UHGV virus genome: UHGV-0212524
DNA: 64,000 bases
Origin: a virus
Direction: 5' to 3' (one strand)
Position 1 is the stretch's first letter; every line of letters begins with the position of its first letter. Position numbers and translations under genes: made by a program. Positions 5,391 through 40,960 of this stretch are shown here, one piece after another. The notes beneath the pieces were generated by a model, which was given only the letters and a program-made list of their open reading frames with translations, was not told the origin of the DNA and searched no databases.

Positions 5391-5411
5391 TAACCCGCTT
5401 ATAAAAATGTT

Positions 5412-5445
5412 GGGGGAGGTGCTTTACCTCCCCCAGATCTTTTAG
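5412..5445 (+). terminator. putative terminator hairpin
   Basis: gggggaggt / acctccccc inverted repeat then a short T-tract. Confidence 0.4.
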
Positions 5446-5468
5446 CTCCCGATAGAGAATTAAATATC

Positions 5469-24680: not shown

Positions 24681-24716
24681 TACCTACCTCCTTTACGGAG
24701 GTAGGTATTTTTTATT
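24681..24716. terminator. bidirectional terminator
   Basis: tacctacctcc tttac ggaggtaggta followed by ttttttatt; abuts the stop of the convergent minus-strand gene. Confidence 0.7.
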
Positions 24717-25386
24717 CTAATCCCATTTCCAGCGCAAGTGCACGGATCGTGTCGTAGTCACGCTGTTCGGCGTACTGACGAATTTCACTTTTCTGGGCAG
24801 ACATCGCGTTGTGTAGCTGTTGGTCACGTTTCACAATAGCCGCCATTAACGCTTTACATTGCTCCAGCGTAAACGGTTCTATACGTGTATTCGACGTGTC
24901 CAGCCAATAATCCGGTGCAGTTTCAGACTGGATATATTGACCCAGCATCTGACGAGAGGTTTCATCCGCTTGGAAATGATGGCCGTCAACTTCGATATAA
25001 CCGTGACGCTGGTCTTCGTATCGGTGTTCAATTTCCAACATGATTTTCTGGATATCTAAATAGATATAGCGAGACGTCGAGCGCATATTCGAACGAATCT
25101 CGTCCAGGTTAATCTCCAGAACGTCAGTAATGAATTCTTTTGCTTTGTTCAGTGTAAACTTCGCCTCAATAGGAGACATTTCGTAAGTTTGCATCTGAGC
25201 TAAAGCTTCTTCATCACTCATCCCTTCAATCAACTTATAGTGCAGTAATGCACAGAACCCCGTACGACCACGGTCTTCGTTACCTACACGTTCCATGTAG
25301 TTACCGTGGCGGTCAATTGGCAGATCGTGCGCGAAATAACGCGCCCGAATCTCTTCTTTCGTTAAGCTTTTGTTAGAAGCAGACAT
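24712..25386 (-). CDS. hypothetical protein, last gene of the radical-SAM cluster (224 aa)
   Basis: Intact ORF; overlaps the upstream gene by about 25 nt; no motif recognised. Confidence 0.55.
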   Translation of the reverse strand: MSASNKSLTKEEIRARYFAHDLPIDRHGNYMERVGNEDRGRTGFCALLHYKLIEGMSDEEALAQMQTYEMSPIEAKFTLNKAKEFITDVLEINLDEIRSNMRSTSRYIYLDIQKIMLEIEHRYEDQRHGYIEVDGHHFQADETSRQMLGQYIQSETAPDYWLDTSNTRIEPFTLEQCKALMAAIVKRDQQLHNAMSAQKSEIRQYAEQRDYDTIRALALEMGLE

Positions 25387-25952
25387 TCTTCTTCTCCAAC
25401 CATACCTAATTCTTGCAGCAAGCCAAAATCAACCAACTGGAAGGTTTCAGAGAGATCGTTTGACCACACCACGTTTGCAATGTCGCGTTCTTCATCCGTT
25501 AACTGTGGTAACACATTTTCGTTGAACGTCTGATGCTCTACGTAATAAGCATCGTAGATAGACGTAGAACGCAAGCAACGGATTGGCAGACGCGGGAAAG
25601 ACACCGCTAATGCAGCAATAGATGCGCTACTCGGATTCTCCGCAGAATAACGAAGCAATTCGATCTTGTGGCGTGGGTAATCCAGTACGCGTTGTTCGAA
25701 ACCCGGATTACGTTTTTCGATTTCCACAACGGACTCATGGCCTGTCTCTGTACAGTAAACGGGAATCATCACGTTTAGCCCGTACTTAATCAACAGAGGT
25801 TTAATCTCATCTGTAAAGTCTTCACCAGGGATAATGGCGTGAACGTTATAGAGTTTGTGTTTGCGCAGAAAACGCTCAACCAGGTGGAGTTTACGCTTCG
25901 TAAAATTGTGGATCAGAATTGATTTCATTATTTGCCTCAGTAGGTTGTGCAT
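25362..25952 (-). CDS. hypothetical protein in the radical-SAM cluster (196 aa)
   Basis: Intact ORF overlapping both neighbours (start may be the internal Met at 25928). Confidence 0.5.
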   Translation of the reverse strand: MHNLLRQIMKSILIHNFTKRKLHLVERFLRKHKLYNVHAIIPGEDFTDEIKPLLIKYGLNVMIPVYCTETGHESVVEIEKRNPGFEQRVLDYPRHKIELLRYSAENPSSASIAALAVSFPRLPIRCLRSTSIYDAYYVEHQTFNENVLPQLTDEERDIANVVWSNDLSETFQLVDFGLLQELGMVGEEECLLLTKA

Positions 25953-27225
25953 TTAACGCACGTTTAGCTTGCTCACGCTCACGCGTACATTTCGGACAGT
26001 AACAAACAGACGAATCGTGCAGTGACGATGCGTGGACGGTGCCTGTACGTTGACGCCAGTATTCTGCCGCCATCAGTTTTGCGGTCGTCCAACCACATTG
26101 ACGTCGTTCAGCGTGGTACGCCTTACGGTCTTCCAGTGTCCCTTCACCGTTTTCGTAGGAAGCAGCTGCACAGCTCCCACAACCGTGTTTCATCGGACAA
26201 CCTAAGCACGTTTCAGGATAGTTGGTGTATTGCGTCTGAATCTCTTCCAGCAGTTTCCCGCCGTCTAAGCTAACAAACTCACGACCGACTAACTCAAACA
26301 CCGCAGAGCGTGACGTTACCGTTGACATGAATCGGTTACAACCATACACCTTACGGTCAAAACCTAAACAAGTCATAAACGTCAACGTCCCACAGAACGG
26401 ACGTAAACGTTCAGGGTTATAACGGTGCGTGTCGTCGTACAGCAGTTTATCACGCCAATCTGGGTCCCAAATCTGACGGAAATCCAGACCTTCAGGAATG
26501 ATGTGGGACAACACGTTACGTGGATTGGTGTGCAGCCCTTTCTCAATCCAATAATCCATCACCTCGATCATCTGCAACGCAATATCCGTTGCCATGCTCC
26601 GTGGAAGGATATCTTCGTACGTCACGTTACCCGAAATCGTACCACCACCCGCAATATCGATTAACGACTTCATACTCGCCGCGTAATGCGGGAGGGTTTC
26701 GGTTGTAAAGGTTGCCTTGATACCCAGTTCAGCAATACCCACTTCTTTTAAGTAGTTATAGCCACGAACAGCGGCTTCGTAAGAACCCTGACGCGTCGTG
26801 GTAAAGATACGATAACGGTCATGGACTTCTGGCAGCCCGTCGATAGACACACCGATGGAGAGTTTGTCTTTCCAACGCTCGACGATCTCACGGTTTAACG
26901 GACGGTCTAACAACGTCCCGTTCGTGGAGATACTGAACATATACGGTCGATTATGCTCCTTACACAACTGTTCTGCGGTTTCAAACGCCGCTAACAGCAG
27001 TTTCGGTTGCATAAAAGGTTCGCCGCCGATGATATCAATAATGACGTCGATGTTCGGAATATCTTTATCACGCTCAAAACAGGCGTGTAAGAAATCCACG
27101 ATATCCGCCGCTTTGTTATTACGCGGATACTTACGTTCGTAACAATACTCACAGTCTAAGTTACAAGACAGGTTCGTTACCACCTGGTAAGTACGTTGTG
27201 AACGTGGTGCTTCATTATTGCTCAT
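25891..27225 (-). CDS. radical SAM enzyme with SPASM-like C-terminal Cys-rich domain (444 aa)
   Basis: N-terminal CNLDCEYC (CxxxCxxC binding site for the SAM-cleaving 4Fe-4S cluster); C-terminal cysteines (CLGCPMKHGCGSC ... CYCPKC) typical of auxiliary-cluster SPASM/twitch domains. Confidence 0.8.
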   Translation of the reverse strand: MSNNEAPRSQRTYQVVTNLSCNLDCEYCYERKYPRNNKAADIVDFLHACFERDKDIPNIDVIIDIIGGEPFMQPKLLLAAFETAEQLCKEHNRPYMFSISTNGTLLDRPLNREIVERWKDKLSIGVSIDGLPEVHDRYRIFTTTRQGSYEAAVRGYNYLKEVGIAELGIKATFTTETLPHYAASMKSLIDIAGGGTISGNVTYEDILPRSMATDIALQMIEVMDYWIEKGLHTNPRNVLSHIIPEGLDFRQIWDPDWRDKLLYDDTHRYNPERLRPFCGTLTFMTCLGFDRKVYGCNRFMSTVTSRSAVFELVGREFVSLDGGKLLEEIQTQYTNYPETCLGCPMKHGCGSCAAASYENGEGTLEDRKAYHAERRQCGWTTAKLMAAEYWRQRTGTVHASSLHDSSVCYCPKCTREREQAKRALNAQPTEANNEINSDPQFYEA

Positions 27226-28132
27226 CTTTGCTTATCCTTTTACGCTCTGCATAAATCACGCGTTTAATGTACTCGTAAGCACCTACCCCGATAGAGCAAG
27301 CAAGCTGATTGCACCCACCGTTTAAGATAGCCGGTGCATTCTGAAGCTGATGTTCTGTTCCATCTGCGTTCAAATACAACTCTTCGCTACAGACATTACA
27401 CTCGTTTTCGAAAATCTTGCTGACAGACACGCCGCACGATTCTCCGGTTTGGACGTTCAGCCGTTCCATATTCTCCTGAATCTTTAAATAACCATAAACG
27501 AAGTTCATGATGTGATCGGGAGACAACGGTTTTGGCATTTGGGCATCAAACATCAGAGAAAACGCACGGGGACGATAGTGGTACATCGCACGATGTAAAT
27601 CCACAATATCTTCATACCAGCGCTTATCGGCTAACTGGTCACGCGTAATCACAGCCCAGGTTTGGAAGTTATCGAGTTCGTATAACGCTTCCAGTGCTTC
27701 GTGGCTATCCTCTTCAATAAAGCGCATAAAAGGGCGCTCAGAACGTTTGTAGCCATCAATTGATACAAACACATGCTCAAAGTCTTTTAGCAGCGTAAGA
27801 TGCGATTTACGCAGTTTTAAGCCGTTGGTATACAAGTGATGCTCAAGGTGCGGATGAGACACTTTCAGTTCGTTAACGAAATCCTCAATCTTACGTTGGA
27901 CGAGTAGCGGTTCACCACCCGTCCAATGTATTTCCTTAATAGCTGGATTCTCTTGTAGTAATTCCAGGATACGTTCGCGTTGAAAAGCACGAGACGAATC
28001 TTCACGATTCATGTAGTAGGCTCCACCGCAGAAACTACAGTCTAGGTTACACTTAGACGTCGTAACTACGGACAATATAGTGGGTTTATCGTACAACTTC
28101 GTCGAGATCCTGGATTCCACATTGTCTATCAT
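27215..28132 (-). CDS. radical SAM enzyme (305 aa)
   Basis: TSKCNLDCSFCGG (CxxxCxxC) and GGEPLL glycine-rich motif; C-terminal cysteines (CNVCSEE, GGCNQLAC); 11-nt overlap with the downstream radical SAM gene. Confidence 0.75.
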   Translation of the reverse strand: MIDNVESRISTKLYDKPTILSVVTTSKCNLDCSFCGGAYYMNREDSSRAFQRERILELLQENPAIKEIHWTGGEPLLVQRKIEDFVNELKVSHPHLEHHLYTNGLKLRKSHLTLLKDFEHVFVSIDGYKRSERPFMRFIEEDSHEALEALYELDNFQTWAVITRDQLADKRWYEDIVDLHRAMYHYRPRAFSLMFDAQMPKPLSPDHIMNFVYGYLKIQENMERLNVQTGESCGVSVSKIFENECNVCSEELYLNADGTEHQLQNAPAILNGGCNQLACSIGVGAYEYIKRVIYAERKRISKDEQ

Positions 28133-28152: not shown

Positions 28153-29040
28153 TTAAATATAATCGATGGCGAATAAAGGATCTTCGTCGAAGTTAACACC
28201 GGGTTTTAAAATCAGTGGCGAATTATACGCTTCCAGTAAACGGTTAAGTTCGTTGTAGCGGCTATTCATCCGTTTGAGGTCTTCTAAGGTCACAACACGG
28301 TCAAGCATCGGCTTAACTGCTTCGGCTTCTTCGTCAGTCAGTTTAACTTTCGACAGCAAGAAGCTGACGAGTTTGGAAATGTCCGCTTCGGTAGCTGGGC
28401 TCTGACCAAAACGTACCTGAACCATATGCTGCATCCACGGTTTACGAATGCGTTTCGTAATCACGTGTTCGTCAGTGATGGCTTTCCAAACCGAACGTTC
28501 ACGAATCCATTCGAACTTATAGCTGTACGCCATTAAGTCGGCCAGATGCGTAATTCCGAGTTCTTGATAGCCTTCAATATCGATATACGGTTCCGTATCA
28601 AAATACTCTTTGGTATCTTTTTCAACCAACGCGTAATAGTTAGGGAACGCACCCAGGTAGTCTGGACTCCACCAACGACGGGCCATTGGTTTAGCATCGA
28701 GTTCTTCAAACGGTGTGAACATAAGTTCTAAGTCAACTGTATTATTTAACACACCGTCGCTAAAGAAATATTTACCGTCGATAAGTTTACCGCGTTGTGA
28801 GTTGTCACCGGTAAAGACAACGATGCTTTCGCCAACCATATCACGAATTTTGAACGTATTCTCAACCGTAAAGTTGTCACGATTAGCGATATGACGACCA
28901 CGCACTTTCGGCCATTCCCCAGGAATCATGGCAATTAAGCGTACATCATCAGCAAGATGGTGACGTACCGAATCAGGGGAAGAGATGTGAAGTGGATGAT
29001 TGAACGTTGTCGTATATGCAAGATGTAGATCGTTCTTCAT
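28153..29040 (-). CDS. hypothetical protein in the radical-SAM cluster (295 aa)
   Basis: Intact ORF between the peptide genes and the radical SAM genes; no motif recognised. Confidence 0.55.
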   Translation of the reverse strand: MKNDLHLAYTTTFNHPLHISSPDSVRHHLADDVRLIAMIPGEWPKVRGRHIANRDNFTVENTFKIRDMVGESIVVFTGDNSQRGKLIDGKYFFSDGVLNNTVDLELMFTPFEELDAKPMARRWWSPDYLGAFPNYYALVEKDTKEYFDTEPYIDIEGYQELGITHLADLMAYSYKFEWIRERSVWKAITDEHVITKRIRKPWMQHMVQVRFGQSPATEADISKLVSFLLSKVKLTDEEAEAVKPMLDRVVTLEDLKRMNSRYNELNRLLEAYNSPLILKPGVNFDEDPLFAIDYI

Positions 29041-29161: not shown

Positions 29162-29371
29162 TTACCTGCCTCCCCCTGCACCTTTACTACAGCTACCACT
29201 GCACGCCCAGCTACAACTCCCATTACAGTTATAGTGAGTTAACGGTAATCCTGCCAAGTTATTCGTTGAGGACACCGTACCCTGATTAGCAATATAGTTA
29301 TTCGCATCTGTGGTTTTAATGTAGCCTTCAACCTGACCGATTCTGTCTCGAATATTTTTGAGGGAAATCAC
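29162..29371 (-). CDS. Cys-rich leader-core peptide, short paralog (69 aa)
   Basis: Leader MISLKNIRDRIGQVE... then HYNCNGSCSWACSGSCSKGAGGGR; paralogous to the two longer peptides. Confidence 0.6.
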   Translation of the reverse strand: MISLKNIRDRIGQVEGYIKTTDANNYIANQGTVSSTNNLAGLPLTHYNCNGSCSWACSGSCSKGAGGGR

Positions 29372-29381
29372 TTCTCACCTC

Positions 29382-29777
29382 CTATCGTCCTGTGCACGAC
29401 GAGCAGCCACCGGTACAGCTACTGGAGCACGATGCTGTACAGCCGCCCGTACAAGTGCCCGAGCACGCATTAGCGCACCCACCCGAACAACTCCCCGAAC
29501 ACCCTGAACAGCTACTTGAACACCCTGACGTACAGTTTGCAGAGCATGAAGAACCGCAACCACCAGACGCGTTCCCTGTACAGCCACCAGAGCAACTCGA
29601 GCAGGTAAAGGAACACGTGCCCGCACAGTCATAATGCGCACGATTCCGACCACCGAACAGGTCCGCGTTATTCGTGGCCTTATTGCGGATGTAGTTCTGT
29701 ACACCTGTGGTGTTTTTCAGCGCGATACTATCGACGTTATTAAGACGTCTTACTAATTCAGCTAATCCAACCGCCAT
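29382..29777 (-). CDS. Cys-rich leader-core peptide, RiPP precursor-like (131 aa)
   Basis: About 48-aa leader then a core of about 25 Cys in a C-x2-3-C ladder (CAGTCSFTCSSCSGGCTGNASGGCGSSC...CTGR) with only Cys/Ser/Gly/Thr/Ala/Asn. Confidence 0.65.
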   Translation of the reverse strand: MAVGLAELVRRLNNVDSIALKNTTGVQNYIRNKATNNADLFGGRNRAHYDCAGTCSFTCSSCSGGCTGNASGGCGSSCSANCTSGCSSSCSGCSGSCSGGCANACSGTCTGGCTASCSSSCTGGCSSCTGR

Positions 29778-29786
29778 TTCTTCCCC

Positions 29787-30179
29787 CTATCGACCAGAGC
29801 AACCGCCGGAGCAAGCACCCGAACAGTTATGCGAACAACGCCCAGTACAACTTCCAGTACAGGTACTTGTACAACTGCTAGAACAAGCCCCCGAGCAGCC
29901 AGAGCATCCCGAACAGTTGCCCCCACAGGACGAAGAGCAGCTACCCACGCACGACGCTGAACAGTTTCCTGAACAGCTCGAGCAACCGTGAGTACATCCG
30001 TTAGAACATGTCCACGAACACGCTCCTCCGCAGTCTAAACGCGAAGGCGTCCAACCGGAAAACGAATCTGCCGCGTTATGCGCTTTCGATGCGACCTGCG
30101 CATTGACACGAGGGCCGGTAGCGACTGTATTTTCTACTGTGGTTAACCGATCGCGCATTTGTTTAACACTAATCGCCAT
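29787..30179 (-). CDS. Cys-rich leader-core peptide, RiPP precursor-like (130 aa)
   Basis: Leader MAISVKQMRDRLTTVEN... then CGGACSWTCSNGCTHGCSSCSGNCSASC...CSGR; RBS aaggaag upstream. Confidence 0.65.
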   Translation of the reverse strand: MAISVKQMRDRLTTVENTVATGPRVNAQVASKAHNAADSFSGWTPSRLDCGGACSWTCSNGCTHGCSSCSGNCSASCVGSCSSSCGGNCSGCSGCSGACSSSCTSTCTGSCTGRCSHNCSGACSGGCSGR

Positions 30180-30203
30180 TACGCTTCCTTAAAATTAAAA
30201 TAG

Positions 30204-30235
30204 AGGAGGAACCAGCCATAAGCATAGTTCCTCCT
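30204..30235 (-). terminator. hairpin between the fibre gene and the Cys-rich peptide genes (terminator or attenuator)
   Basis: On the minus strand aggaggaac ...loop... gttcctcct followed by ctattttaatttt. Confidence 0.45.
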
Positions 30236-30244
30236 GTAATTAAA

Positions 30245-31450
30245 TTATTTCGTACCCGCTTCCGCCTGTACGTCATCACGAGACGTCAGGTTAGCGTTAA
30301 CGTGTACTGGGGCCTGAACCACACCACCGTATCTCTTGTGGAGATAACCGGTGTGCGGGTTATCTGCCGCGATGTGGTTTTGTAGGTTCTGGTTCGCTTG
30401 ACTGATTGCGTTCGTGTTATTGTTAACTTGCTGTTTAAGCGCATCCAGGTTCTGTTGTACCTGATCGATTTTCTGATCGGTTTCTTGACCCTGTTGCTCT
30501 AACGCGGCAACACGCTGAATAACCTGATTCAGTTTTGTGTTTAAATCGTTGATGCTCTTTTGCAGTTGTAACACTAACGAGTTCAGGTTCGCTAACGCTA
30601 AGGCCATTTTCTGGTAGTTTTGAGCAACCACGTTAAGTTGGTCGTTCCACGCTTCCAGAGAGTTGACAACAGCGTCAATACGCTTACCTAAAGCTTCGTC
30701 CGCTTTCTTCAGTGCATTGATTTCCGTAATCGTTGCGTCGATGGCAGACTGGACGTCACGAATAAGCGCACGGATTTCAGTTTCTGTTAACCCGTTAACC
30801 TGATGAATATCAAGATGGTGAACGTTACCGGTTGCGTTGATGTGTGCATTTAAAGCGTCTAAGAAGTCATTTTTCAGGCTTTCTAAAATCGCTTTAATGT
30901 TCTCTAACTGTACCGCGTCACCGGAACTGATCGCATCTTTAATACCCGCCAATACGGTAATGATATATTCAAAACCGTAGATGTCACCCACGTCTTTATA
31001 CGTCGGTGCAGATGGGAATGTATCCGGTACGTTACGCAGGTCTTTAAACGCAATCGTACGGTTATCGAGGTTTAATTCAGCAATCGCCTGTTCGATAGCC
31101 ACAATGTTCGCAGACTGTGGACCACCAACGACCTGCGCAGATACCGTAATATCTGTTGGAATCGCTGTGTTAGTGACCACCACCGCCATAACAATCTCGC
31201 GGTTTTTAGTCAGCTTTTCATAAGTCGGGTGTGCAAAAATCAACTCATAATCGGTACCACGTTCGTAGGTTGCATCCGGTCGGTTAGCAACACGTAAACG
31301 GAACGTGTCCGCAAAGAACGGGCCGTCAGGAAAAGCAAAAGCACGGTTTACTTTACCTGTACCTAACGTAATCTGACGCTCTACAGCGTTAGACGTTAGC
31401 GAGCCCGTTAAATCTAAAGGATATTGATAAACAATGGAGGCCATGGCCAC
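30245..31450 (-). CDS. short coiled-coil fibre protein with shared fibre N-terminal anchor motif (401 aa)
   Basis: N-terminal FPDGPFFADTFRLRV...GTDYELIF matches the anchor motif of the three large fibres; the C-terminal 200 aa is heptad-rich (LNSLVLQLQKSINDLNTKLNQVIQRVAALEQQ). Confidence 0.65.
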   Translation of the reverse strand: MAMASIVYQYPLDLTGSLTSNAVERQITLGTGKVNRAFAFPDGPFFADTFRLRVANRPDATYERGTDYELIFAHPTYEKLTKNREIVMAVVVTNTAIPTDITVSAQVVGGPQSANIVAIEQAIAELNLDNRTIAFKDLRNVPDTFPSAPTYKDVGDIYGFEYIITVLAGIKDAISSGDAVQLENIKAILESLKNDFLDALNAHINATGNVHHLDIHQVNGLTETEIRALIRDVQSAIDATITEINALKKADEALGKRIDAVVNSLEAWNDQLNVVAQNYQKMALALANLNSLVLQLQKSINDLNTKLNQVIQRVAALEQQGQETDQKIDQVQQNLDALKQQVNNNTNAISQANQNLQNHIAADNPHTGYLHKRYGGVVQAPVHVNANLTSRDDVQAEAGTK

Positions 31451-31484: not shown

Positions 31485-34400
31485 TTAAGATGTAAACATA
31501 AGATTGAACTGGAGTTTGTCGATATCGCGAGTTTCCGCCGGATTCACGGCATCGTACGCGGTCGCTACGTAAACGGTTAGCGTACCGTTAGCGTAAGACG
31601 ATTTCACCGGTGGGTTAGTTCCGGTCTGACCATCTCGGACAATGAGCGTAGGTTCACTCGGGAGATTGTCAAACTGACCCTTGACCGCTTTATACACCAA
31701 ACCAGATTGCGCAGCCAGTTCAGTGTCCGTAAAGACAAAGAACGGTGTGTCGATATCAGCCTGCTTGACGATGGTGTTCGATTCAACGTCAATCAACTGT
31801 ACCGCCCCAAACTTCGTACGATAACTTTCATACTCGTTCTTCGGAATAACGAACGTGACATGAACACGAACCTCCTCGGCAGGTTTAAACCCACTGTGCT
31901 CTTTTTCCAGGTACTGGTTGGCGGTTAACGTTACCGTTTGTTCAGTCATCGTACCACCGGCCTGGTTTAATGCATACCGAGCTTCAACAATACCGGTTGG
32001 TGCAGCAAGTCGTAGTTTCAGAGCACGATTCGCCGTTCCTGGATTACCTGGCACCTGAACACGCAAACTCAATGCTAAGTAAGCATTCGTTCCGGTAGTC
32101 GGTTTCGTATACGCACCAATCCATTTCATGTTCGCAGACGCTGCCTGCATGTTCTCAGAAGCAGTGGCTGTCGCAATGTTAGCAGCTACCGCTTTCTGCC
32201 AGAATTGGTCAGCGCAGTTCTCATACGCTACCCTGGCCACGCTCTTATAACCCGAATACGTTTCCTGAATTGGTAACTTAGGACGCGTCGTAATGCCGGA
32301 CAGTGAACCCCATTTCTGACCGTCAACATACCCTTCACCTTTCGACGCAGACGCCGTAGGTGCTTTAACGGGCTTGTTAACCAGTGTTAATAGAGGACCC
32401 GTCTTTCTGTCAAACGCTGCTGCTACATCGTGTTGGTCGATAATTGCTGCGTGGTCTTCCAGTTCTTTCACACGACCCAAACGTTTTACTTTGTCGATAC
32501 TGATACCAGTAATACGGCTGGAATCGGTGGTTACTGTCCCAACGAACAGTCTTGTTGAGGTATCGGCTAACTGCTCCAAACCGATGCGGTATTGCGCGGT
32601 AGAACCCGACACCTCAGCGTGCACGTAGAACGTCTGGTTAGCGTGATTGGATGGGAACTCACTGCTTAAATCCACAGACCACGTTGGGAGTGTGTAACTG
32701 CTGCTACCGAAATCTAATTTGACTTCTTCTGTCAAATACAGAATCCAACCTTCCGCTGTTTCCACACCGGCAATAATAACCGCCTGACCTCCGGTTGAGA
32801 ACGTCGTGTCGTTAACGAACTCTGCGGCTGTATACGCGTTACCTGAACAGAAAACACGGTCAGCTTTAGAGTAAATCAACGCCATCTTGTCCCAATCACC
32901 GGCACCCATATAGCACCCAGATTCTGGTCTATGTTCAGGGGCCATCTGCCGTAACTGTGATTTACCTGCAACGCGTGTCCAACCTGAACCAGGGTCGAAG
33001 GTATATTTAGCAGCGTAGCCCAGGGCGTTTAAGTCCCCGATATTTCGGGTAGTTAACGTATAAGGTAACCAGATACCGAAGTTAGTTCCATCCGCAGATG
33101 CAAAAATAGGCTGCCCCACGCGCCTCGTTTTACCTCCCGCTCCCCCATTTAGTGACTGATAACTTAAACCATAATCGAGGTCTAAGAACCAGTCCACCAA
33201 CTTAAAGGTGGCTGAGTTGAAACGTAAGTAGCCGTTCTCTTTAGATGGGCTCACCATGAAGTAATAGATGTCAAGAATTCGACGTCCGTTACTTGAGGTT
33301 TTCATGCACGAAACTTGCAACAAGTCAAATTCGCACACGGTGTTGATACCCAACATCCAAAGAGCAAACAATGCATTACCGGTTTGATGTGCAGCACTAA
33401 TACGTTCGTTCGCGTAACCATTTGCTTGACCAGATGGCGCACCGTCAACGATCATCCGAATCATTTTCTGCCGATCGGCTTCTTCTAGCGTTAAGCGTTC
33501 GGAAGACAATGCGAAGTTACCGTAGATGTTACGATACGGGAACGTTTCTGCTTTGGTCAAATACCAGCCGTTCAACTGTCCATGACGCTCCTCAGGGATC
33601 ATGCACGCAGCCATACAGCTAAGCTGCTCGTAAAGCGTTGGATCGACTTCACGACGGTTGTTGTTCGGACCGTACCCACTATACCCAGAAACATCGTAAG
33701 GTTTGTTCGGATCAACTTCCACTTCGATCGTGTAACGGTTACGAGGGTTCGATAACCAGACCTTATTCGAACCACCAATCCCTACTGGATAAGACAAACC
33801 GATGGTGTAAATGGAGCCACGGCCTTTATCCCAGGTAAACGTTCCTTCGCCCGAGGTGTTGTTTGGGTTATCGTAACGCAGATAATCGAAAAGCTCTCTG
33901 CCTTGTGTACTCTTAATAGAAACATTAGGCATTTGGTCCGCATCGGCAATTTGCCAACAGGAAAGCATCATTCCTGTACCGTTGGGTTTAGCATACGTCG
34001 CGAAACAACGGTTGTTTGCCTGGCCACCACCCCACTTACGATTGGTTCCTACAGTTGAACCATCTGCGAACGAGAGTGTAGTAGTAGCATCAGCCTTGAT
34101 GGGGAAGCGTTCGCGGCCTTCTAACGTAACCTTGCCCGTCAACGTATCGATTGTAAAACTTGTTGCCCATTGAAGGAAATTAATCGTCGTACCGTCGGCC
34201 GCTGCAAACCACACGGTAGGCATATGGTTCACACGAATCACGCTATCGCGCACAGCACACGCGTGGTTACATTCTGGACCGTGAACAAAGTTACGCCCGA
34301 TCGTCCATTTAGCACGACCCTCCGGTGTGAGATATGTAAAGAATTGACCCGTTTGCGACTCTTCGGTTTTCTGACCAATACGCAAGCAGAGGTTATCTCC

Positions 34401-36671
34401 GAATTGTCCCATCTCGCCGGTTAGAGTTACACGTTCAAATTCTAACGTAGTGTTAGTAGACAAATCGGCCTTACGTAGACGCCAAGCTGCTACGGCGTAA
34501 GCGGAGTTATTTACCGTTGAACGGAGAAGATAAACGTAGTCCTCAACCAACACGACATCGTCAGCTTCCGGCCACGGGTTCCAGGTTTGTTCCACAGTAC
34601 CACTGGGGTTGCCGTTACGGTACACGGGCATCGTAACGCGACATACCACCGTGTGCTTAGTGTGGTCCATCGAGCCATTAAACAGCACCAAATAACGGTT
34701 ATTGTCAGAACCCAGGCAAATAATCGCTTCCTGGCCACCGATCAATATCGCTATTAGGGTCACCCCAGGATATTTACTCATCCCGGCAGGGTGATATTTC
34801 ACTGAGGTCTGCTGCGGATTTACAAACGCGTTTGACGTGTCAATGTCAGCATAGCCGTAATAAATAGCTTCCGTACCCGGCACGCCGTTAGAACCGTTAC
34901 GGAGCGAATAAACCTTACCCTGCTGATACCCAACAACCCCTTTCTGGTAGGACTGGTTTTTGGTATAGCCTGCGTAGTTACCTAACGCTGGGATAGGTAA
35001 GAAGTTCTTGTTACCGAATTTCGCTCCACCTACCGTCCACGCCGGTAAGATGGTATTCAGTTTATCAGAGACCTTCTTAATCTCTTTTGCGAACAACCAG
35101 CCTTGACGCGACGTGACAGCTTTATCGTTAGTGGTGTCAATTGCATCCCAGAGCTGTAAGATACCGTCAACCGTTGCACTACCAATCGGGACGTTATCCA
35201 AGTCAGCAGTGGTGTGGGTGTGCGTTTTCAAACTCTTGTTTTTCAACACGTTCGTTAACGCTTTTGTCACAGGCTTATCACTCGGTATGGTGTTATCCAT
35301 CTTATCGATACCGAAATCGGTTTTCGTTAAGGTTAACACCATATTGTCGCCTGTTTTAACAAACCCTTTACCGTTAACGGTATAGTCATCGTCAACGTAC
35401 AAGTCCAAGCGGTCTTTTAATTCTGTTACAGCTTTCTGGGAGATAGCAGTACCTAACGCCGCAGACGTAGAGATATTCGTAATCGAGAACAACCCATAAA
35501 CTGATTCGGACGCCGTGGGAATATTCGCGTTTAACGTAACCGGGTTAGTCTGTTTTGCGGTACCGTACGGTTTTACAGTGTCTGACGCTTTGAAATACGC
35601 GTTTGCTTCAAGCAACGTTACTGACGTCAGATACATGTTCACCATTTCTGGTGTAACCAGGTACACGGAGTTATAAACTGGCGCTAATACGTCCTGTTCC
35701 GACCCCGAGTGAACCCAAAGCGTATTCAGACCCGCACTGAATTCAACCGCTAAACCCGATTCGTTGTTGTCCTGGTCTGCTTTAATCACCAACGGTTGTG
35801 GCGAGGTAATTAACCACTTATCACCACGAATACTGATGATGTGGCCACCTGACGTTTTAAACGTTAATTCATTACCGTTCGTGGTACCCCATCGACCGTA
35901 AACGGTGCCGAGGGCTTCACCCATTAACTGGTCAACGTCCGATTGCTCAATACCCGCTGAACCCATCAGCGTAGCCAACTCGTCAATCGTCAACCCAAAC
36001 GCTTTTGTAGCGTCAACAGCACGACCTAATACCGGGAGAGCAGCAATGTCATCAGTGGTATAATGATGCGCGTTAGGGTTACGGTGATGCTGGTATAACT
36101 CTTCGTCGAAAACCTTTTTACCGTTCTCGTAAATCAAGTTAGTGACTTCACTGAACGCAGCATCTAATTCCGTAGAACGTTTGATGATTTTCTTGCGAAT
36201 GTCTTCTAACGCCTTAACAACCTCATCCCTCAGAATCGCTTCTTCTAAGTTAGCAGGCGGGTCGATAGGCTGAATAACCGGCGCATACGCCATTAGTTCA
36301 GACCAGTCCACGTTACGTGGGTCTTTCAGGTCAGTACGAACTAAGAACTTCCCGATTTCAGATTGCGGTACACGGTATTGACGTGCTACCCCTAAAATCT
36401 CATATTCGATTTCTGTTGCAGTAAGCAACATAAACCCGCCGTAAATCTGATCTTGTTCAGCTTCTGCGAGTTCTTTAAAGTAATAGCCTAAATAGTAGTC
36501 CAACCCCTCAATCAGAGTACGACGTCCGTTAGGCGCGGTATCGTCGGCTACTGTGAGTTTTAATCCGATACGATAAAAAGGTCCTTCAGGCGGAATGACC
36601 ACGTTAAATCGGTTAGGGTACGTCGCTGTGCTTAGCGTACCGTTAAACTGCGCCGCGTCTTCTCTCGGCAT
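31485..36671 (-). CDS. large tail fibre or tail spike protein (1728 aa)
   Basis: N-terminal anchor motif PPEGPFYRIGLKLTV...GLDYYLGY shared with neighbouring fibres; size and position in the structural block. Confidence 0.7.
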   Translation of the reverse strand: MPREDAAQFNGTLSTATYPNRFNVVIPPEGPFYRIGLKLTVADDTAPNGRRTLIEGLDYYLGYYFKELAEAEQDQIYGGFMLLTATEIEYEILGVARQYRVPQSEIGKFLVRTDLKDPRNVDWSELMAYAPVIQPIDPPANLEEAILRDEVVKALEDIRKKIIKRSTELDAAFSEVTNLIYENGKKVFDEELYQHHRNPNAHHYTTDDIAALPVLGRAVDATKAFGLTIDELATLMGSAGIEQSDVDQLMGEALGTVYGRWGTTNGNELTFKTSGGHIISIRGDKWLITSPQPLVIKADQDNNESGLAVEFSAGLNTLWVHSGSEQDVLAPVYNSVYLVTPEMVNMYLTSVTLLEANAYFKASDTVKPYGTAKQTNPVTLNANIPTASESVYGLFSITNISTSAALGTAISQKAVTELKDRLDLYVDDDYTVNGKGFVKTGDNMVLTLTKTDFGIDKMDNTIPSDKPVTKALTNVLKNKSLKTHTHTTADLDNVPIGSATVDGILQLWDAIDTTNDKAVTSRQGWLFAKEIKKVSDKLNTILPAWTVGGAKFGNKNFLPIPALGNYAGYTKNQSYQKGVVGYQQGKVYSLRNGSNGVPGTEAIYYGYADIDTSNAFVNPQQTSVKYHPAGMSKYPGVTLIAILIGGQEAIICLGSDNNRYLVLFNGSMDHTKHTVVCRVTMPVYRNGNPSGTVEQTWNPWPEADDVVLVEDYVYLLRSTVNNSAYAVAAWRLRKADLSTNTTLEFERVTLTGEMGQFGDNLCLRIGQKTEESQTGQFFTYLTPEGRAKWTIGRNFVHGPECNHACAVRDSVIRVNHMPTVWFAAADGTTINFLQWATSFTIDTLTGKVTLEGRERFPIKADATTTLSFADGSTVGTNRKWGGGQANNRCFATYAKPNGTGMMLSCWQIADADQMPNVSIKSTQGRELFDYLRYDNPNNTSGEGTFTWDKGRGSIYTIGLSYPVGIGGSNKVWLSNPRNRYTIEVEVDPNKPYDVSGYSGYGPNNNRREVDPTLYEQLSCMAACMIPEERHGQLNGWYLTKAETFPYRNIYGNFALSSERLTLEEADRQKMIRMIVDGAPSGQANGYANERISAAHQTGNALFALWMLGINTVCEFDLLQVSCMKTSSNGRRILDIYYFMVSPSKENGYLRFNSATFKLVDWFLDLDYGLSYQSLNGGAGGKTRRVGQPIFASADGTNFGIWLPYTLTTRNIGDLNALGYAAKYTFDPGSGWTRVAGKSQLRQMAPEHRPESGCYMGAGDWDKMALIYSKADRVFCSGNAYTAAEFVNDTTFSTGGQAVIIAGVETAEGWILYLTEEVKLDFGSSSYTLPTWSVDLSSEFPSNHANQTFYVHAEVSGSTAQYRIGLEQLADTSTRLFVGTVTTDSSRITGISIDKVKRLGRVKELEDHAAIIDQHDVAAAFDRKTGPLLTLVNKPVKAPTASASKGEGYVDGQKWGSLSGITTRPKLPIQETYSGYKSVARVAYENCADQFWQKAVAANIATATASENMQAASANMKWIGAYTKPTTGTNAYLALSLRVQVPGNPGTANRALKLRLAAPTGIVEARYALNQAGGTMTEQTVTLTANQYLEKEHSGFKPAEEVRVHVTFVIPKNEYESYRTKFGAVQLIDVESNTIVKQADIDTPFFVFTDTELAAQSGLVYKAVKGQFDNLPSEPTLIVRDGQTGTNPPVKSSYANGTLTVYVATAYDAVNPAETRDIDKLQFNLMFTS

Positions 36672-36765: not shown

Positions 36766-39700
36766 CTAAGTACGATCCCCTAACTGCTTCCCGTTAAGTT
36801 CACGTTTCAGTACAGAAAGTATCCATTTCCACGCTTTACTCGTGATATGGTACGGATTGCGTTTCTCCATTAAGAACTGCTTTTCACCGCTACGCAGTTC
36901 GAAGCTCTGCGCATTAAGCTGATCCTGACGAGTGCTTTGCTCATCAGTCACGTCTAACGAACAGGTAAAGTTAAGCTCGTAACCTTCGGGATTATCACCC
37001 GGCGGGTCTAAGACAATATAGATGTCCTGACCTACACGTAAGTCGGTGGCCGTGATACTAATCGCTTTACCTACGTCAGCACTGGTTGACAGAGCAAACT
37101 CTGCGCTATCAGTAGACGCTAAGAATGGGTCTTTCCCTGCGTCGCCGATAATCACCTTACCTGGCCAGTTACTTTTTATCGTTCCTGACACTTTTGCAAT
37201 TCGGTACTGTTGTTTATCGGCACCTTGTGCAAAACGGAGAATGAGTTTGTGACGATAACGACTTGCAGCAGCCTTAGTCGTACTCCACTCGTTGTTCCAG
37301 GAAGTATGCAGTTCGTTTTTCTTCGCCATCAGCGCACCGCGAGACAGCTTACGATCAAAGAACTGCGCAGGTAACTGCCCATCGTGAGAAACCGCAACGT
37401 TTCCCTGACCAGTTGGCAAGGCAATGCTCTCCGTGGCACGGTATTTTTGACTAATCTCATAAGTCGCAGGGTCAATCACAGACTGACTATAATCAGCGTC
37501 TTTGTTATCAGCCAAATACCCAACGGATGAATCCAAATACGACTCAAACAACGAACGTAAGTAATGATACTTATCAATGTCGATGTTGTTCGTAACCGGA
37601 TCAATCAGTGCGTGGCTAATTGTTACTCGGCATTTCGCGCTCAGTTCTTTAAACGACAACCCTATTCCGTCACCGGTGAAATAATCCACCAAGTCAAACG
37701 GGAATTGAATCTCCAATTGACGTTGTTTAACTGTCGTCGTCCCAAACTGCGAGAACGACAACGCTAAACGTAACACACGCGTACTTACGTTATAACGGTA
37801 ACGAATCATCCCACGAGGTGCATGGTTTGCAGAGATTTTATCTCGGGTGGCACCCCAGCCAATCAAATCGAGAATCGCGGGGTTGGTTTCTTCACCGTTG
37901 AACAACACGTCCTTAAACGTTGCATTCACCGCTGTTTCCCCAGACTCTTCCATTACCAACGGAATGTCAGTAACGTCTGAAACTGAACGGGAACCAATCC
38001 CCAACTTACACGCTTTGTCCGTCAGGTCAATACGTACATAACGACGTTTAACACTCGCCCCTTGCGTTGACGTACATAGCACCAAATCTGGTGCGGCAGT
38101 AAGTGCTTGTGTTCCACCGACGTCGTCAACATCGAATGCAAACGAACCTTCGAACGTCGGTGCGTTGTTTTCTTTCGGGTTAAACGGTGTAAACCAGCAA
38201 TACGGTGTAGCACCTTCAGGCATCACAACGTACTGAAGACTGGACTTCACGTTTTGGTTGTGTGCGTAAGTATAAAGACCGCGACTGACAAGATGGAAAA
38301 CATCACCTGTTCCGGCTGTTAACGCTTTCCTAAAGATACACGCTCTTGGTTCGGCAATAGCACGGTTTAATAACGGCAAACGTGGGTTATCCGTTAACGC
38401 CCAGTCCACAGAACTGAGTCCGTGTGCTTTACGCGTGTCGATGTGTTCACTAACCTCGGCACTTTTCCCGAAATCAAACGTGGTTTCGAACCCTACCGTT
38501 TTATTCGCGTAATTCTCACCAGCAACAATATCAACGTAACCGATATAACCACGTTCAGGATCAACTGCGATGCTCTGAATCGGTTCAGCACGCGAATACA
38601 GAGAGCCTGTGAGCATGTTAACGTACAGATAGTGACGAATCCCTACGTGCGTGGTAACAAACTCCTGGAGAAGCTCTACGCGCGTTTCAGGGCCACTGAA
38701 GTAAACAGGGTAATCCCCATCGTAAACTTCAAACTGTACCGCTGCGGACTTAGCCGTGTCACTACATTCAGCTTTAACCGCAATCGTGTAGTTTTCAACG
38801 TCTGCTGACGTTTCATACACTGCAACGAGTGGAGATTCGCCTGAAGCTGCTAGGTTACCGTTGATATAAACGGTTACCGGTCCGCCCCCTGCGGCATAAA
38901 CCCAGAGCTTCGATTGGTACGCCCTTACACGCGTTTTTGCCAGAACCGTAACGACTGACTGGTCACCCATCTGTGTAGCAGTTTTACCTACCGGGACAGA
39001 CTGGAACCCCATCAACGGCGGTTCTTCAATACCCGTCCAGTTGATTCCCGTACCGTTACTCACCTTACCCGTAGGCCAGGTCAGTTCAAGCTGGTTATTC
39101 GGTGAGAACCAGTTAAACATCGGGGTGGTTTGCAGGTCAATCGCACCAGTAACGGTGCTGTCGCCTTTCGTCCCGTCCAGCAAATAGAAATATTTCAAAT
39201 CCTGAACGGAGATTGACGTACCCTGGCTATTAAAGCGCCAGTCTGCACCTTTCACAGCAGCAAAATCAGTTACCGTGCCTTCTTTCGCGTTTGCAATTGC
39301 AGCAGCCACCACATCTAAACGGGCTGAAAGCTCTTTTAAGATGTTCGGTACCACCGCACGGTTTTCAACTAAGCCGTTCTGGTTAGTTGCGTAACGACCG
39401 ATGCCGTAAATCGACTGCGAGGCTTTATAAATGCCTAACTCTGACCAGTCGTGATGGTGTCCGACGTCTGCTAAACCACTAACCGAAGCATTCAGTGCGG
39501 TTGACAACGGTTTGTCGAGGTCTGCGGTGTTATCCGCTTGCCCTAATCCCAGGTCAGCTTTTGTGATTGTCCTGGAACCGTCGTTCATCGGTTTACCGTT
39601 AATCATGGTCGTTTTAGTCACGTACCCTGATAAGTCGGTTGAATACGGCGTTAATGACGCAGGGGTTGCAGCAACCCCAACCGTTTCTGTGCCTTTACCG

Positions 39701-40950
39701 GTTTTAAGTTTAACAACACCTTTTTCAGCGGTGGTCGCTTTCGTCGGGTCGATAGTCCCCACGATAGGATCGGCACGAGAACCTTTACCGGTAAAACTAA
39801 TCCCGTTACGGCCTTCGATATACACTTTGGAGTCATCAGGATCGCTACCGCCACTCCCGCCAGCATCAGGGTCTTGCTGATACTCCATCAGCGCTGTGGT
39901 GGTCAACAACGGGTTACCGTTCAGAGTGAGTTTGTTCATCCCTAAAGCGTCACCGGTTGACTCGATACGTAAGGTGTTTTTACCCGCACGCCAGTTAATG
40001 TAACGTCCCGCACCTGTGCCTTCCAGATGCCCTACCGCCAATACCACAGAACCGTTGGATTTTAACGTAAAGCCATCATTCGCAAAAATGATTTCGGACT
40101 CACCATTTTTCGAACGGAACTGTGCGCGGTTTCCAGACACCGTACAGTTAAACACGCCCCGTACTTCCGAAGAAATCCAGTGGGAGATATACGTGTCAAT
40201 AACTGACTGTGGTAAACGAAACGCTTTCAGTTCTTCCGTTAACGCTTTTAATTTTAACCCGTACGCCATAAAGGTGTCAGGTGTTTTCAGGTTAACGGGA
40301 TGGGCATTAATTTGTGCGCTCGTGGTTTCGTGCGGGTTCGTCGCGGCGATATGTGCTGGGTAGTTAAACGCTTCGATTTCTTTCCCCAACGCAGCCACTA
40401 GCGCTTTAACTTCGGCTAATTTATCTTTAATTAGCTGGTTAGCATCATCGGTTTTCAGCTCGATATCGTGAATCGCTGACGCTAAATATTTTTTGTTCAG
40501 CAAGTCCGCCCAGGACGTTGCCGCTGGCGTAGCCGGGTATAACGACGGTCTACCGTCTAACAACAGCCAGTCTGCACTGACCGGGTTATTCAAATATTTC
40601 ACCAGCTCGTCGAGCATGTCAACGAACGGGTCGTAGAACGTACCGCCGAGCATTTGCCCTTCAAAGGTTACAATGCCTTTGATGGATGGGTTGATAAGGT
40701 GTACCCCACAATACACGTTGGCTGCTACCGAGTCATCCAGTTCCGTCAGCTGATATTGCAGTTCGTAATCCACCCCACGGCTCAGTGGGGTGGTTGAACC
40801 TGGTTGTCTGACGACTAAGTCTTCAAAGAACGGGCGATGGTCTAAAATCACCACCCGGTCGTTGTTGTTTTCTGACCCGATGATACGCTCCTCTAAGAAG
40901 TGATTCTCGGTTTTCGTCCCCCGAGGATCGTAAGGATACGCTTTCATCAA
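36766..40950 (-). CDS. large tail fibre or tail spike protein (1394 aa)
   Basis: N-terminal HRPFFEDLVV...GVDYELQY anchor motif. Confidence 0.7.
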   Translation of the reverse strand: MMKAYPYDPRGTKTENHFLEERIIGSENNNDRVVILDHRPFFEDLVVRQPGSTTPLSRGVDYELQYQLTELDDSVAANVYCGVHLINPSIKGIVTFEGQMLGGTFYDPFVDMLDELVKYLNNPVSADWLLLDGRPSLYPATPAATSWADLLNKKYLASAIHDIELKTDDANQLIKDKLAEVKALVAALGKEIEAFNYPAHIAATNPHETTSAQINAHPVNLKTPDTFMAYGLKLKALTEELKAFRLPQSVIDTYISHWISSEVRGVFNCTVSGNRAQFRSKNGESEIIFANDGFTLKSNGSVVLAVGHLEGTGAGRYINWRAGKNTLRIESTGDALGMNKLTLNGNPLLTTTALMEYQQDPDAGGSGGSDPDDSKVYIEGRNGISFTGKGSRADPIVGTIDPTKATTAEKGVVKLKTGKGTETVGVAATPASLTPYSTDLSGYVTKTTMINGKPMNDGSRTITKADLGLGQADNTADLDKPLSTALNASVSGLADVGHHHDWSELGIYKASQSIYGIGRYATNQNGLVENRAVVPNILKELSARLDVVAAAIANAKEGTVTDFAAVKGADWRFNSQGTSISVQDLKYFYLLDGTKGDSTVTGAIDLQTTPMFNWFSPNNQLELTWPTGKVSNGTGINWTGIEEPPLMGFQSVPVGKTATQMGDQSVVTVLAKTRVRAYQSKLWVYAAGGGPVTVYINGNLAASGESPLVAVYETSADVENYTIAVKAECSDTAKSAAVQFEVYDGDYPVYFSGPETRVELLQEFVTTHVGIRHYLYVNMLTGSLYSRAEPIQSIAVDPERGYIGYVDIVAGENYANKTVGFETTFDFGKSAEVSEHIDTRKAHGLSSVDWALTDNPRLPLLNRAIAEPRACIFRKALTAGTGDVFHLVSRGLYTYAHNQNVKSSLQYVVMPEGATPYCWFTPFNPKENNAPTFEGSFAFDVDDVGGTQALTAAPDLVLCTSTQGASVKRRYVRIDLTDKACKLGIGSRSVSDVTDIPLVMEESGETAVNATFKDVLFNGEETNPAILDLIGWGATRDKISANHAPRGMIRYRYNVSTRVLRLALSFSQFGTTTVKQRQLEIQFPFDLVDYFTGDGIGLSFKELSAKCRVTISHALIDPVTNNIDIDKYHYLRSLFESYLDSSVGYLADNKDADYSQSVIDPATYEISQKYRATESIALPTGQGNVAVSHDGQLPAQFFDRKLSRGALMAKKNELHTSWNNEWSTTKAAASRYRHKLILRFAQGADKQQYRIAKVSGTIKSNWPGKVIIGDAGKDPFLASTDSAEFALSTSADVGKAISITATDLRVGQDIYIVLDPPGDNPEGYELNFTCSLDVTDEQSTRQDQLNAQSFELRSGEKQFLMEKRNPYHITSKAWKWILSVLKRELNGKQLGDRT

Positions 40951-40960
40951 AAAATTCTCC

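Follow-up and report, generated by a model that had tools for sequence, protein, structure and literature searches.

In this study, a 64,000-nucleotide stretch of the viral genome UHGV-0212524 (hereafter the window, meaning the whole stretch that was analysed) was investigated, with emphasis on three neighbouring minus-strand genes between positions 29162 and 30179. Their products, referred to as ladder proteins A, B and C, each join an N-terminal leader region to a core in which cysteine recurs mostly at every fourth residue (a Cxxx ladder). The three genes probably encode small proteins that are associated with tail fibres and cross-linked by radical S-adenosylmethionine (rSAM) enzymes, rather than free peptide natural products. 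The ladder proteins are very probably the substrates of the rSAM enzymes encoded beside them, in support of the original prediction from this sequence, which had proposed a shared maturase. This reading was adopted because the large rSAM best matches the TIGR04115 maturase family, the ladders score near the cut-off of the TIGR04114 target repeat, a Cxxx open reading frame (ORF) accompanies the enzyme at 73 of 80 related loci, and the leader is kept in 60 phage records. A fibre module was proposed because the genes lie in an operon between homologues of gp167 to gp170 of phage SPN3US and tail-fibre-like downstream genes, and because the same module is fused to tail fibres in unrelated phages. 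We read the Cxxx ladder with the region preceding it as a portable tail-fibre module of phages that is serviced by its own rSAM enzyme or enzymes; the module travelling with these enzymes is widespread, and undescribed in the literature that we found.

The three ladder genes are as follows:

29787-30179, minus strand: Cys-ladder protein A, 130 amino acids (aa) with 21 Cys; an N-terminal part of 49 aa, then a Cxxx-repeat core ending in SGR.
29382-29777, minus strand: Cys-ladder protein B, 131 aa with 20 Cys; junction motif NADLFGGRNRAHYDC-x3-CSFTC.
29162-29371, minus strand: Cys-ladder protein C, 69 aa with 4 Cys and a GTG start; one short ladder.

Three paralogues alike in their N-terminal region, each with a Cys-ladder core, had been predicted, and the ORFs were found at exactly the positions given for them. 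A Shine-Dalgarno-like site precedes each gene (AAGGAAG, AGGGGGAAG and AGGAGGTGAG). The first Cys is residue 49-51, leaving a Cys-free N-terminal part of about 48-50 aa; from that Cys on, C, S, G, T, A and N make up 94-96% of the core, and Cys accounts for about 25% of the cores vs 1.0% in the long ORFs of the window. The consensus unit is C-[S/T]-G-x, and the intervals between Cys residues are 4 (n = 35), 3 (n = 6) and 8 (n = 1). The predicted spacing of three to four residues thus holds apart from one interval, whereas the predicted counts of about 25 and 5 Cys were too high. Protein C has the leader and junction of its paralogues with a shorter ladder. The junction consensus is N-A-D-x-[L/F]-G-G-x5-Y-x-C-x2,3-C-S-W-x-C; the HY(D/N)C motif expected at this place occurs in B and C, and A has RLDC instead. 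All three proteins end in Gly-Arg as described, but the ending is GPNS or GPM in the B orthologues of SPN3US and an Erwinia phage. No ladder pattern was found in any other coding frame of the window. The sole other Cys-periodic match (6021-6110, minus strand, 7 Cys) is hydrophobic and lies out of frame within a large plus-strand gene, and was judged spurious.

Family searches place the three proteins together. All match phrog_6085, a family of unknown function (A, E 1.6e-36; B, E 1.6e-42; C, E 1.6e-25), and no other PHROG. The TIGR04114 Cxxx target-repeat model scores A at 19.5 bits and B at 17.6 bits, both just under the cut-off of 20, and gives no match for C. The AlphaFold2 model of protein A (6-sequence alignment) has a confidence score (pLDDT) of 40, with about 36 and no fold in the core; a weak N-terminal helix is predicted at residues 5-21. 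The lack of a fold in the unmodified monomer core would fit a requirement for modification or for oligomerisation. The leader would yield tryptic peptides that include VQIVEANMATGPR, IDAQVASK and FGGWTK.

All six frames are open in the low-complexity core DNA, so the selected frame was tested by counting codon differences between gene A and its SPN3US orthologue in all three sense frames. In the core, the Cys frame carries 41 synonymous and 13 non-synonymous differences, against 1 and 51 in one of the other sense frames and 8 and 41 in the second, and 47 of the 65 base differences lie at third codon positions. The Cys frame is the frame under selection, and the three genes are real; overlapping alternative ORFs, such as 29375-29704 and the plus-strand 'PEQ' frames, were ruled out by this test. 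A tandem-repeat finder detected almost no DNA-level repetition in the ladder genes and the codons are varied, indicating that the periodicity is held at the protein level; slippage or a simple-repeat artefact as the source of the ladder is ruled out by the same near-absence of repeats. In the leader of gene A the differences are 16 synonymous and 17 non-synonymous. Among orthologues, purifying selection is stronger on the core than on the leader.

Orthologues of A, B and C are present in SPN3US and an Erwinia phage. Those of A have the same length as A, that of C has 68 aa in both phages, and core length and Cys register are fixed between orthologues, as would be expected of a structural element of defined length. 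In SPN3US (NC_027402) the orthologues lie at complement 144053-144445, 143413-143817 and 143191-143397. The RefSeq record NC_027402.1 annotates a wrong-frame 111-aa ORF over gene B (gp100, 143409-143744) and carries no annotation for genes A and C. Many of the 60 phage records with the leader likewise have no feature annotated at the ladder genes. A homologue search with the ladder peptide yielded no more than 8 proteins, a low number that probably reflects how often gene callers overlook these genes or choose the wrong frame for them; homologues of the ladder genes were sought by tblastn and six-frame regular-expression scans.

Three further genes of the cassette follow the ladder genes directly:

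28153-29040, minus strand: accessory protein, 295 aa, phrog_8030, of unknown fold.
27215-28132, minus strand: small rSAM enzyme, 305 aa; CNLDCSFC and C-terminal C245, C248 and C274.
25891-27225, minus strand: large rSAM/SPASM enzyme, 444 aa; CNLDCEYC at residues 21-28 and the full SPASM Cys set.

The large rSAM matches Pfam Radical_SAM (E 4.7e-14), and its best NCBIfam match is TIGR04115, the CXXX-repeat target maturase (E 5.6e-36, 124.8 bits vs a cut-off of 350), followed by PapB NF047865 (E 7.5e-32, 110.8 bits vs a cut-off of 340). Further matches are HxsB (E 7.5e-21), the anaerobic sulfatase maturase (anSME), QhpD and the SCIFF maturase (55.5 bits vs a cut-off of 425); the closest solved structure, and the sole relative in the PDB by sequence, is CteB (5wgg). 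The enzyme has the CX3CX2C motif of SPASM peptide maturases and the SPASM Cys set for two auxiliary [4Fe-4S] clusters, with the motif C-x2-C-x5-C-x2-C. Across 24 homologues with identities down to 27%, C21, C25, C28, C296, C340, C343, C349, C352 and C377 are invariant and C278 and C286 are at least 90% conserved. The small rSAM matches Pfam Radical_SAM (E 8e-15) and HxsC (E 1.3e-12) and is 30% identical to that of a Deferribacter prophage locus (L005; E 1e-13). Its three extra Cys (C245, C248, C274) are invariant across the small rSAMs of five loci (window, L002, L005, L006, L087), which suggests a twitch-like auxiliary cluster. The TIGR04119 domain, the second maturase domain of the CXXX-repeat system, is not among the best 25 of about 60 families listed for either rSAM, and the 295-aa protein and two downstream proteins of 196 and 224 aa have no match to it (no NCBIfam match at E 0.01).

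The association between ladder and enzyme was surveyed with an IMG/VR scan using the rSAM alignment, which returned 80 loci. A Cxxx-repeat ORF lies on the same strand in 73 of them, usually just upstream of the rSAM gene; single stretches contain as many as 92 Cys. The seven loci without such an ORF are the weakest, partial rSAM matches. In 66 ladder ORFs the ladder is preceded by 60 residues or more, and 52 of these share an N-terminal domain of about 100-130 aa holding an 'L-K-x-x-V-x-x-E-L-x-R-R' helix, which is reminiscent of the 'IRDR' motif of the window leaders. Other ladder ORFs begin with tail-fibre repeats or with an SGNH esterase (lipase/esterase PHROG matches); by eye, further N-termini read as a collagen-like region and a discoidin-like, putatively sugar-binding domain. 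Most metagenomic loci have one rSAM, and the form with two rSAMs and an accessory protein is a sub-variant. In the commonest metagenomic variant, an ORF of 180-194 aa separates the Cxxx gene from the rSAM gene, and no relation of this ORF to the 295-aa protein was detectable. Among isolated phages, only SPN3US-like jumbo phages have the system, with the leader in 60 records and the rSAM in 63.

A scan of bacterial genome contigs was also performed. Its pattern was the generic CX3CX2C motif and most of its 80 loci were unrelated SPASM enzymes, so that it served as an internal control; Cxxx ORFs occurred only beside the best-scoring rSAM relatives. Metagenome-assembled genomes of Margulisbacteria/Termititenax carry ORFs of about 660-670 aa whose Cxxx repeats contain over 100 Cys (L007, 3886-5874; L008, 5384-7402; L009, 5647-7650). 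The Cxxx ORF of L007 adjoins a near-TIGR04115 rSAM (273 bits) and purF, and no phage genes were evident among the few neighbours scanned at these loci. An Acidobacteria metagenome-assembled genome (L024, 6845-7974) encodes two Cxxx proteins whose N-termini resemble twin-arginine signals (RRQFLR...GGAAALLL), which suggests that ladder proteins are exported in bacteria. At another locus (L107, 2863-4176), a protein with an ALK/LTK glycine-rich domain (PF12810, E 1.4e-47), another low-complexity structural element of small residues, is encoded about 4 kb upstream of the Cxxx/rSAM cassette on the same strand.

Genomic contexts were then considered for distant homologues of the large rSAM (28-40% identity), and all six of those looked up fall among tail or large structural genes of unrelated phage types. 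In a P2-like prophage of Campylobacter (L006), gpW, gpJ and gpI are followed by a 384-aa ladder fibre, a 250-aa protein, two rSAMs, and the sheath and tube genes; the 384-aa protein has a Pfam Phage_tail_fib N-terminal domain and a C-terminal Cxxx ladder ('...GCNGCSGSCSGSCSSGCTACSGCSGSCSGK...'). In two prophages or tails of the GpJ type (L005 from Deferribacter, and L087), ladder fibres of 302 and 258 aa are followed by an accessory homologue and then by two to three rSAMs. These fibres carry HxH repeats (HTHDDRYYTETE) just upstream of the ladder and end in 'NADQLGGQAGSYYRCSDCSWTCSSSC...' (GGQ..YYRC..CSWTC) with a long ladder, and the junction motif aligns between such HxH fibres and the window leaders. 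The 250- and 277-aa accessory proteins of L005 and L087 are homologous in their C-terminal halves to the 295-aa protein of the window (hhalign 97-98%, E 5e-11 and 1e-12), showing that this half is kept at the same cassette position in unrelated prophages. In L087, three consecutive rSAM genes (5306-8134) come after the Cxxx-tipped fibre, and a 180-aa protein encoded at 9876-10418 matches the thrombospondin TSP1_ADAMTS family.

Profile matches to phrog_6085 extend these observations. The C-terminal parts of proteins from seven loci (L094, L095, L096, L153, L158, L005 and L087) match this family (E 1e-23 to 1e-5), and the N-terminal parts of L092, L094 and L006 match many 'tail fiber protein' PHROG families. 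The matches of L096 and L153 start at profile positions 11 and 3, so leader positions are included in the fused proteins. The leader-plus-Cxxx module is the C-terminal end of true tail-fibre proteins in unrelated phages. Other loci present variations on this arrangement. A 17-Cys ladder ORF in L088 (4937-5251) overlaps, in another frame, the 3' end of a T7-type tail-fibre gene (3291-5024), and through a frameshift some of the fibres could receive the ladder at their end. In L003 and L004 the ladder protein follows baseplate-wedge genes, with the rSAM of the myovirus L004 located 1.3 kb downstream. The Cxxx frame of both (L003, 7956-9070; L004, 5952-7066) runs on in a second overlapping frame, the two stretches holding 19 and 42 Cys in turn. 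Two independent assemblies show this, and the cause is either a programmed frameshift or an assembly error. In L145, a Baseplate_J gene lies two genes upstream of the ladder gene.

The co-occurrence data and the HxH repeats bear on an explanation in which the ladder is not modified at all, but binds metal, comparable to HxH-bound iron in the fibre tips of T4 and P2, or forms disulfides after lysis, and the rSAMs act elsewhere. The HxH repeats just upstream of the ladder in the L005 and L087 fibres speak for it, as do a Cys content of 25% with small spacer residues, which resembles metal-binding proteins, and the disordered monomer model, as apo metal-binding proteins often are disordered. The tight association of Cxxx ORFs with this rSAM clade across lineages argues the other way, as does the fact that the nearest characterised relatives of the large rSAM all modify Cys-containing peptides. 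A metallothionein-like protein had been named as the alternative in the original prediction, and no metallothionein family match was found in Pfam at E 0.1. An unmodified ladder would also leave two Fe-S enzymes and an accessory protein in a fibre operon unexplained, and we regard it as improbable.

The operon in which the cassette lies gives a further line of evidence for the fibre-module reading. The window DNA is about 75% identical to Seoulvirus jumbo phages, such as SPN3US and Erwinia phage pEa_SNUABM_29, and by sequence the window represents an SPN3US-like jumbo phage. The ladder genes lie within a long minus-strand tail-fibre operon running from 45283 to 24712, in the order of three giant proteins (1440, 1394 and 1728 aa), a 401-aa protein, A, B, C, the 295-aa protein, the 305-aa rSAM, the 444-aa rSAM, and proteins of 196 and 224 aa. 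Its other features are listed below:

36766-40950 and 40961-45283, minus strand: giant proteins of 1394 and 1440 aa, paralogues upstream of the 1728-aa protein.
31485-36671, minus strand: 1728-aa baseplate/tail-fibre protein, SPN3US gp168 homologue; first of three giant paralogues upstream of the ladder genes.
30245-31450, minus strand: 401-aa coiled-coil fibre protein, homologue of SPN3US gp167, directly upstream of gene A.
30201-30238, minus strand: hairpin with a U-rich tract, separating the gene of the 401-aa fibre protein from gene A.
24712-25952, minus strand: two downstream operon genes, for a 196-aa protein (phrog_7988, unknown function) and a 224-aa tail-fibre-related protein.

The 401-aa protein belongs to phrog_2163, a virion structural protein family (E 7e-103), and its RefSeq neighbour is labelled 'virion structural protein'. 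The 224-aa protein matches the tail and tail-fibre PHROGs 2837 and 1807, and its SPN3US orthologue is labelled as a DUF4376 domain protein. The hairpin (-20.6 kcal/mol, z -2.6) was equalled by 1 of 200 shuffles, and could serve as a terminator or a processing site, giving the ladder genes an expression of their own. A promoter and terminator scan of the window was uninformative; phiKZ-like phages have RNA polymerases of their own. The large rSAM is 100% identical to proteins of Salmonella enterica (serovar Chester and others) on contigs of up to 226 kb (P0054), and to a protein of an IMG/VR contig (L090). The matches in Salmonella assemblies suggest that the jumbo phage turns up inside bacterial genome assemblies.

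Published virion data for SPN3US bear on the neighbouring genes. The gp167 protein (44.8 kDa) was detected in virions (PMC5694885 supplement), and gp168 to gp170 (188, 149 and 135 kDa) are virion proteins described as paralogous baseplate/fibre candidates (PMC5694885). By position and size, the giants at 36766-45283 appear to correspond to this gp168-170 family. The proteins gp163 to gp166 have no rows in the SPN3US virion tables (PMC5694885); judged from gene order, they would comprise both rSAMs, the 295-aa protein and an ORF called in error. The published proteomics (PMC5694885) probably could not detect the ladder proteins, because A and C are unannotated, B is mis-framed and the cores contain no K or R. 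Their absence from the SPN3US virion data is uninformative either way.

Position and conservation both bear on the origin that had been predicted for these peptides, namely precursors of a ribosomally synthesised and post-translationally modified peptide (RiPP). In such a pathway the rSAMs would cross-link the core, the leader would be cleaved and the ladder peptide would be released at lysis as a toxin, signal or anti-competitor. The leader-plus-core architecture fits this account, and so do the family-level similarity to the bacterial CXXX-repeat system, the small 88-aa precursor and ATP-binding cassette (ABC) exporter of a Clostridiaceae system (L017), and the presence of three paralogous substrates beside maturases, which is typical of RiPP clusters. 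However, Pfam, NCBIfam and PHROG scans found no protease, exporter or immunity gene among the scanned neighbour proteins of the window operon, the genes are embedded in a tail-fibre operon, and elsewhere the same module is the C-terminus of genuine tail fibres with the leader-like region retained. Leader conservation with variable core length, which had been expected, was found between the paralogues; between orthologues the core has fixed length and register and is better conserved than the leader, which is the reverse of what RiPP systems usually show. A released product with a cleaved leader is therefore hardly to be expected here, and the classical RiPP account is disfavoured. The prediction had itself named unmodified or structural peptides, for example in virions, as contrary to its interpretation: the structural part comes close to the fibre-associated proteins that we favour, and the unmodified part does not, modification being more likely.

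Several points weigh against cross-linked, fibre-associated ladder proteins. No modification of the ladder has been observed, and the chemistry rests on family resemblance only; the TIGR04115 and PapB scores of the large rSAM are far below the curated cut-offs, so its reaction could differ. Proteins A, B and C have never been reported in a virion, and in this phage the module consists of free-standing small proteins without a fibre fusion, so that attachment to a fibre is assumed. In addition, at one of the distant loci (L089) a pair of rSAM genes lies among genes for large unannotated proteins, and no ladder ORF was detected at this locus.

The mechanism that we infer involves the action of the rSAMs on the ladder, thioether chemistry, leader retention and a location in the virion. 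In the reducing cytoplasm, which does not allow disulfides to form, the ladder proteins would be produced at a late stage of infection along with the fibre proteins. The large SPASM rSAM, aided by the small twitch-like rSAM and the 295-aa protein, would recognise the retained N-terminal/junction region and convert the Cys thiols to covalent cross-links, most likely thioethers to the alpha or beta carbon of a neighbouring residue. Intramolecular thioethers are the most likely chemistry by analogy with ranthipeptides and sactipeptides (PapB, CteB, QhpD). The product would be a chain of small rings, forming a thin rigid rod that resists proteases and reducing agents and that is the distal part of a fibre or attached to one. 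The N-terminal/junction region would remain as a recognition and attachment element, and the 295-aa protein may be a substrate-presenting or assembly factor.

The enzymes may instead modify the fibre module by another chemistry, such as inter-chain cross-links within a trimer, conversion of Cys to formylglycine (as by anSME), C-methylation or epimerisation by the second rSAM, or C-S links between Cys residues. Both rSAMs are far below every curated family cut-off, anSME and the paired HxsB/HxsC are also among the matches, two different rSAMs (three in L087) suggest more than one reaction, and the residue at i+4 is itself Cys, unlike in the C-x3-D unit of PapB. Yet the best-scoring characterised relatives (PapB, the SCIFF maturase/CteB and QhpD) all make intramolecular Cys thioethers, and a single rSAM suffices in most metagenomic loci; we consider a different chemistry unlikely. 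Returning to the thioether ladder, a broader proposal is that many phages, including enterobacterial jumbo phages, P2-like and lambda-like phages and gut myoviruses, harden their distal tail fibres by thioether ladders that rSAMs install on a Cxxx module with a retained leader. Such hardening would be the first radical-SAM modification of RiPP type on a virion structural protein and the natural function of the orphan CXXX-repeat rSAM family; we advance it tentatively, at slightly less than an even chance.

If these proposals are true, phages chemically cross-link part of their host-recognition fibres, and RiPP-style radical chemistry builds virus particles and not only secreted peptides. They would then also explain rSAM genes in the structural clusters of jumbo phages, including the eight in the structural cluster of an Aeromonas giant phage that were called 'highly unusual' in 2025 without explanation (PMC12390700). 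The PHROG families 6085, 8030 and 1802 would gain a function, and the orphan NCBIfam CXXX-repeat system a biological role. Covalent stapling of fibre tips could bear on host range and on how stable phages are in the gut, and could be relevant to the engineering of robust phages and peptide scaffolds. The analysis also exposes genes that reference genomes, the RefSeq entry for SPN3US among them, omit or place in the wrong frame. Because amber mutants and virion proteomics already exist for SPN3US, a genetic model phage, the hypothesis can be tested directly.

Comparison with known systems places the phage cassette among several of them. The closest is the NCBIfam CXXX-repeat system, which is bioinformatically defined by the TIGR04114 target repeat, the TIGR04115 rSAM/SPASM maturase and the TIGR04119 second maturase domain; the L017 locus is a textbook case, with a TIGR04115-TIGR04119 fusion (506 bits), the 88-aa precursor and the ABC exporter. 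We found no paper on the chemistry of this system, and none linking it, the SPN3US rSAMs or rSAM enzymes generally to tail fibres. Both systems have a target with Cys at every fourth residue, small residues between them and a SPASM rSAM gene beside it. In contrast, the phage enzyme reaches 125 bits vs the cut-off of 350, lacks TIGR04119 among the families listed and has no ABC exporter, and the phage has two additional components, a small second rSAM and the 295-aa accessory protein, whose fold is unknown. Its targets are tail-fibre modules or fibre-operon proteins, not exported peptides of 70-110 aa.

The PapB system offers a second comparison. PapB makes freyrasin, with six C-x3-D thioether rings. 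The phage enzyme shares the rSAM and SPASM architecture with two auxiliary clusters found in PapB, CteB, the SCIFF maturase and QhpD, and like PapB it has CX3CX2C at its extreme N-terminus, which leaves no N-terminal RRE domain. As in freyrasin, the repeated short Cys units suggest a string of small rings. Unlike in PapB, the phage unit C-[S/T]-G-x has no acidic acceptor at i+4, the ladder has at least 20 units vs six, and the substrate is apparently a structural virion protein with a retained leader.

Metal-laddered fibres are a structural parallel. HxH iron sites occur in T4 gp37 and in P2-type fibre tips, and such fibres have dedicated chaperones. Both kinds of fibre would carry periodic metal- or bond-forming residues along a thin rod at a distal position, both have dedicated non-virion helper genes directly downstream of the fibre gene, and L005 and L087 join HxH repeats to the Cys ladder. 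Here, however, the helpers are Fe-S radical enzymes and not chaperones, and stabilisation would be covalent and enzyme-installed. The His-Xaa-Ser system (HxsB/HxsC) also pairs a large SPASM rSAM with a small rSAM and has a target with a short-period repeat; it differs in its weak scores and in the HxS vs Cxxx repeat, and we know of no phage context for it. Judged from its sequence features, the phage system appears to work like a ranthipeptide or sactipeptide system, yet it belongs to no curated family.

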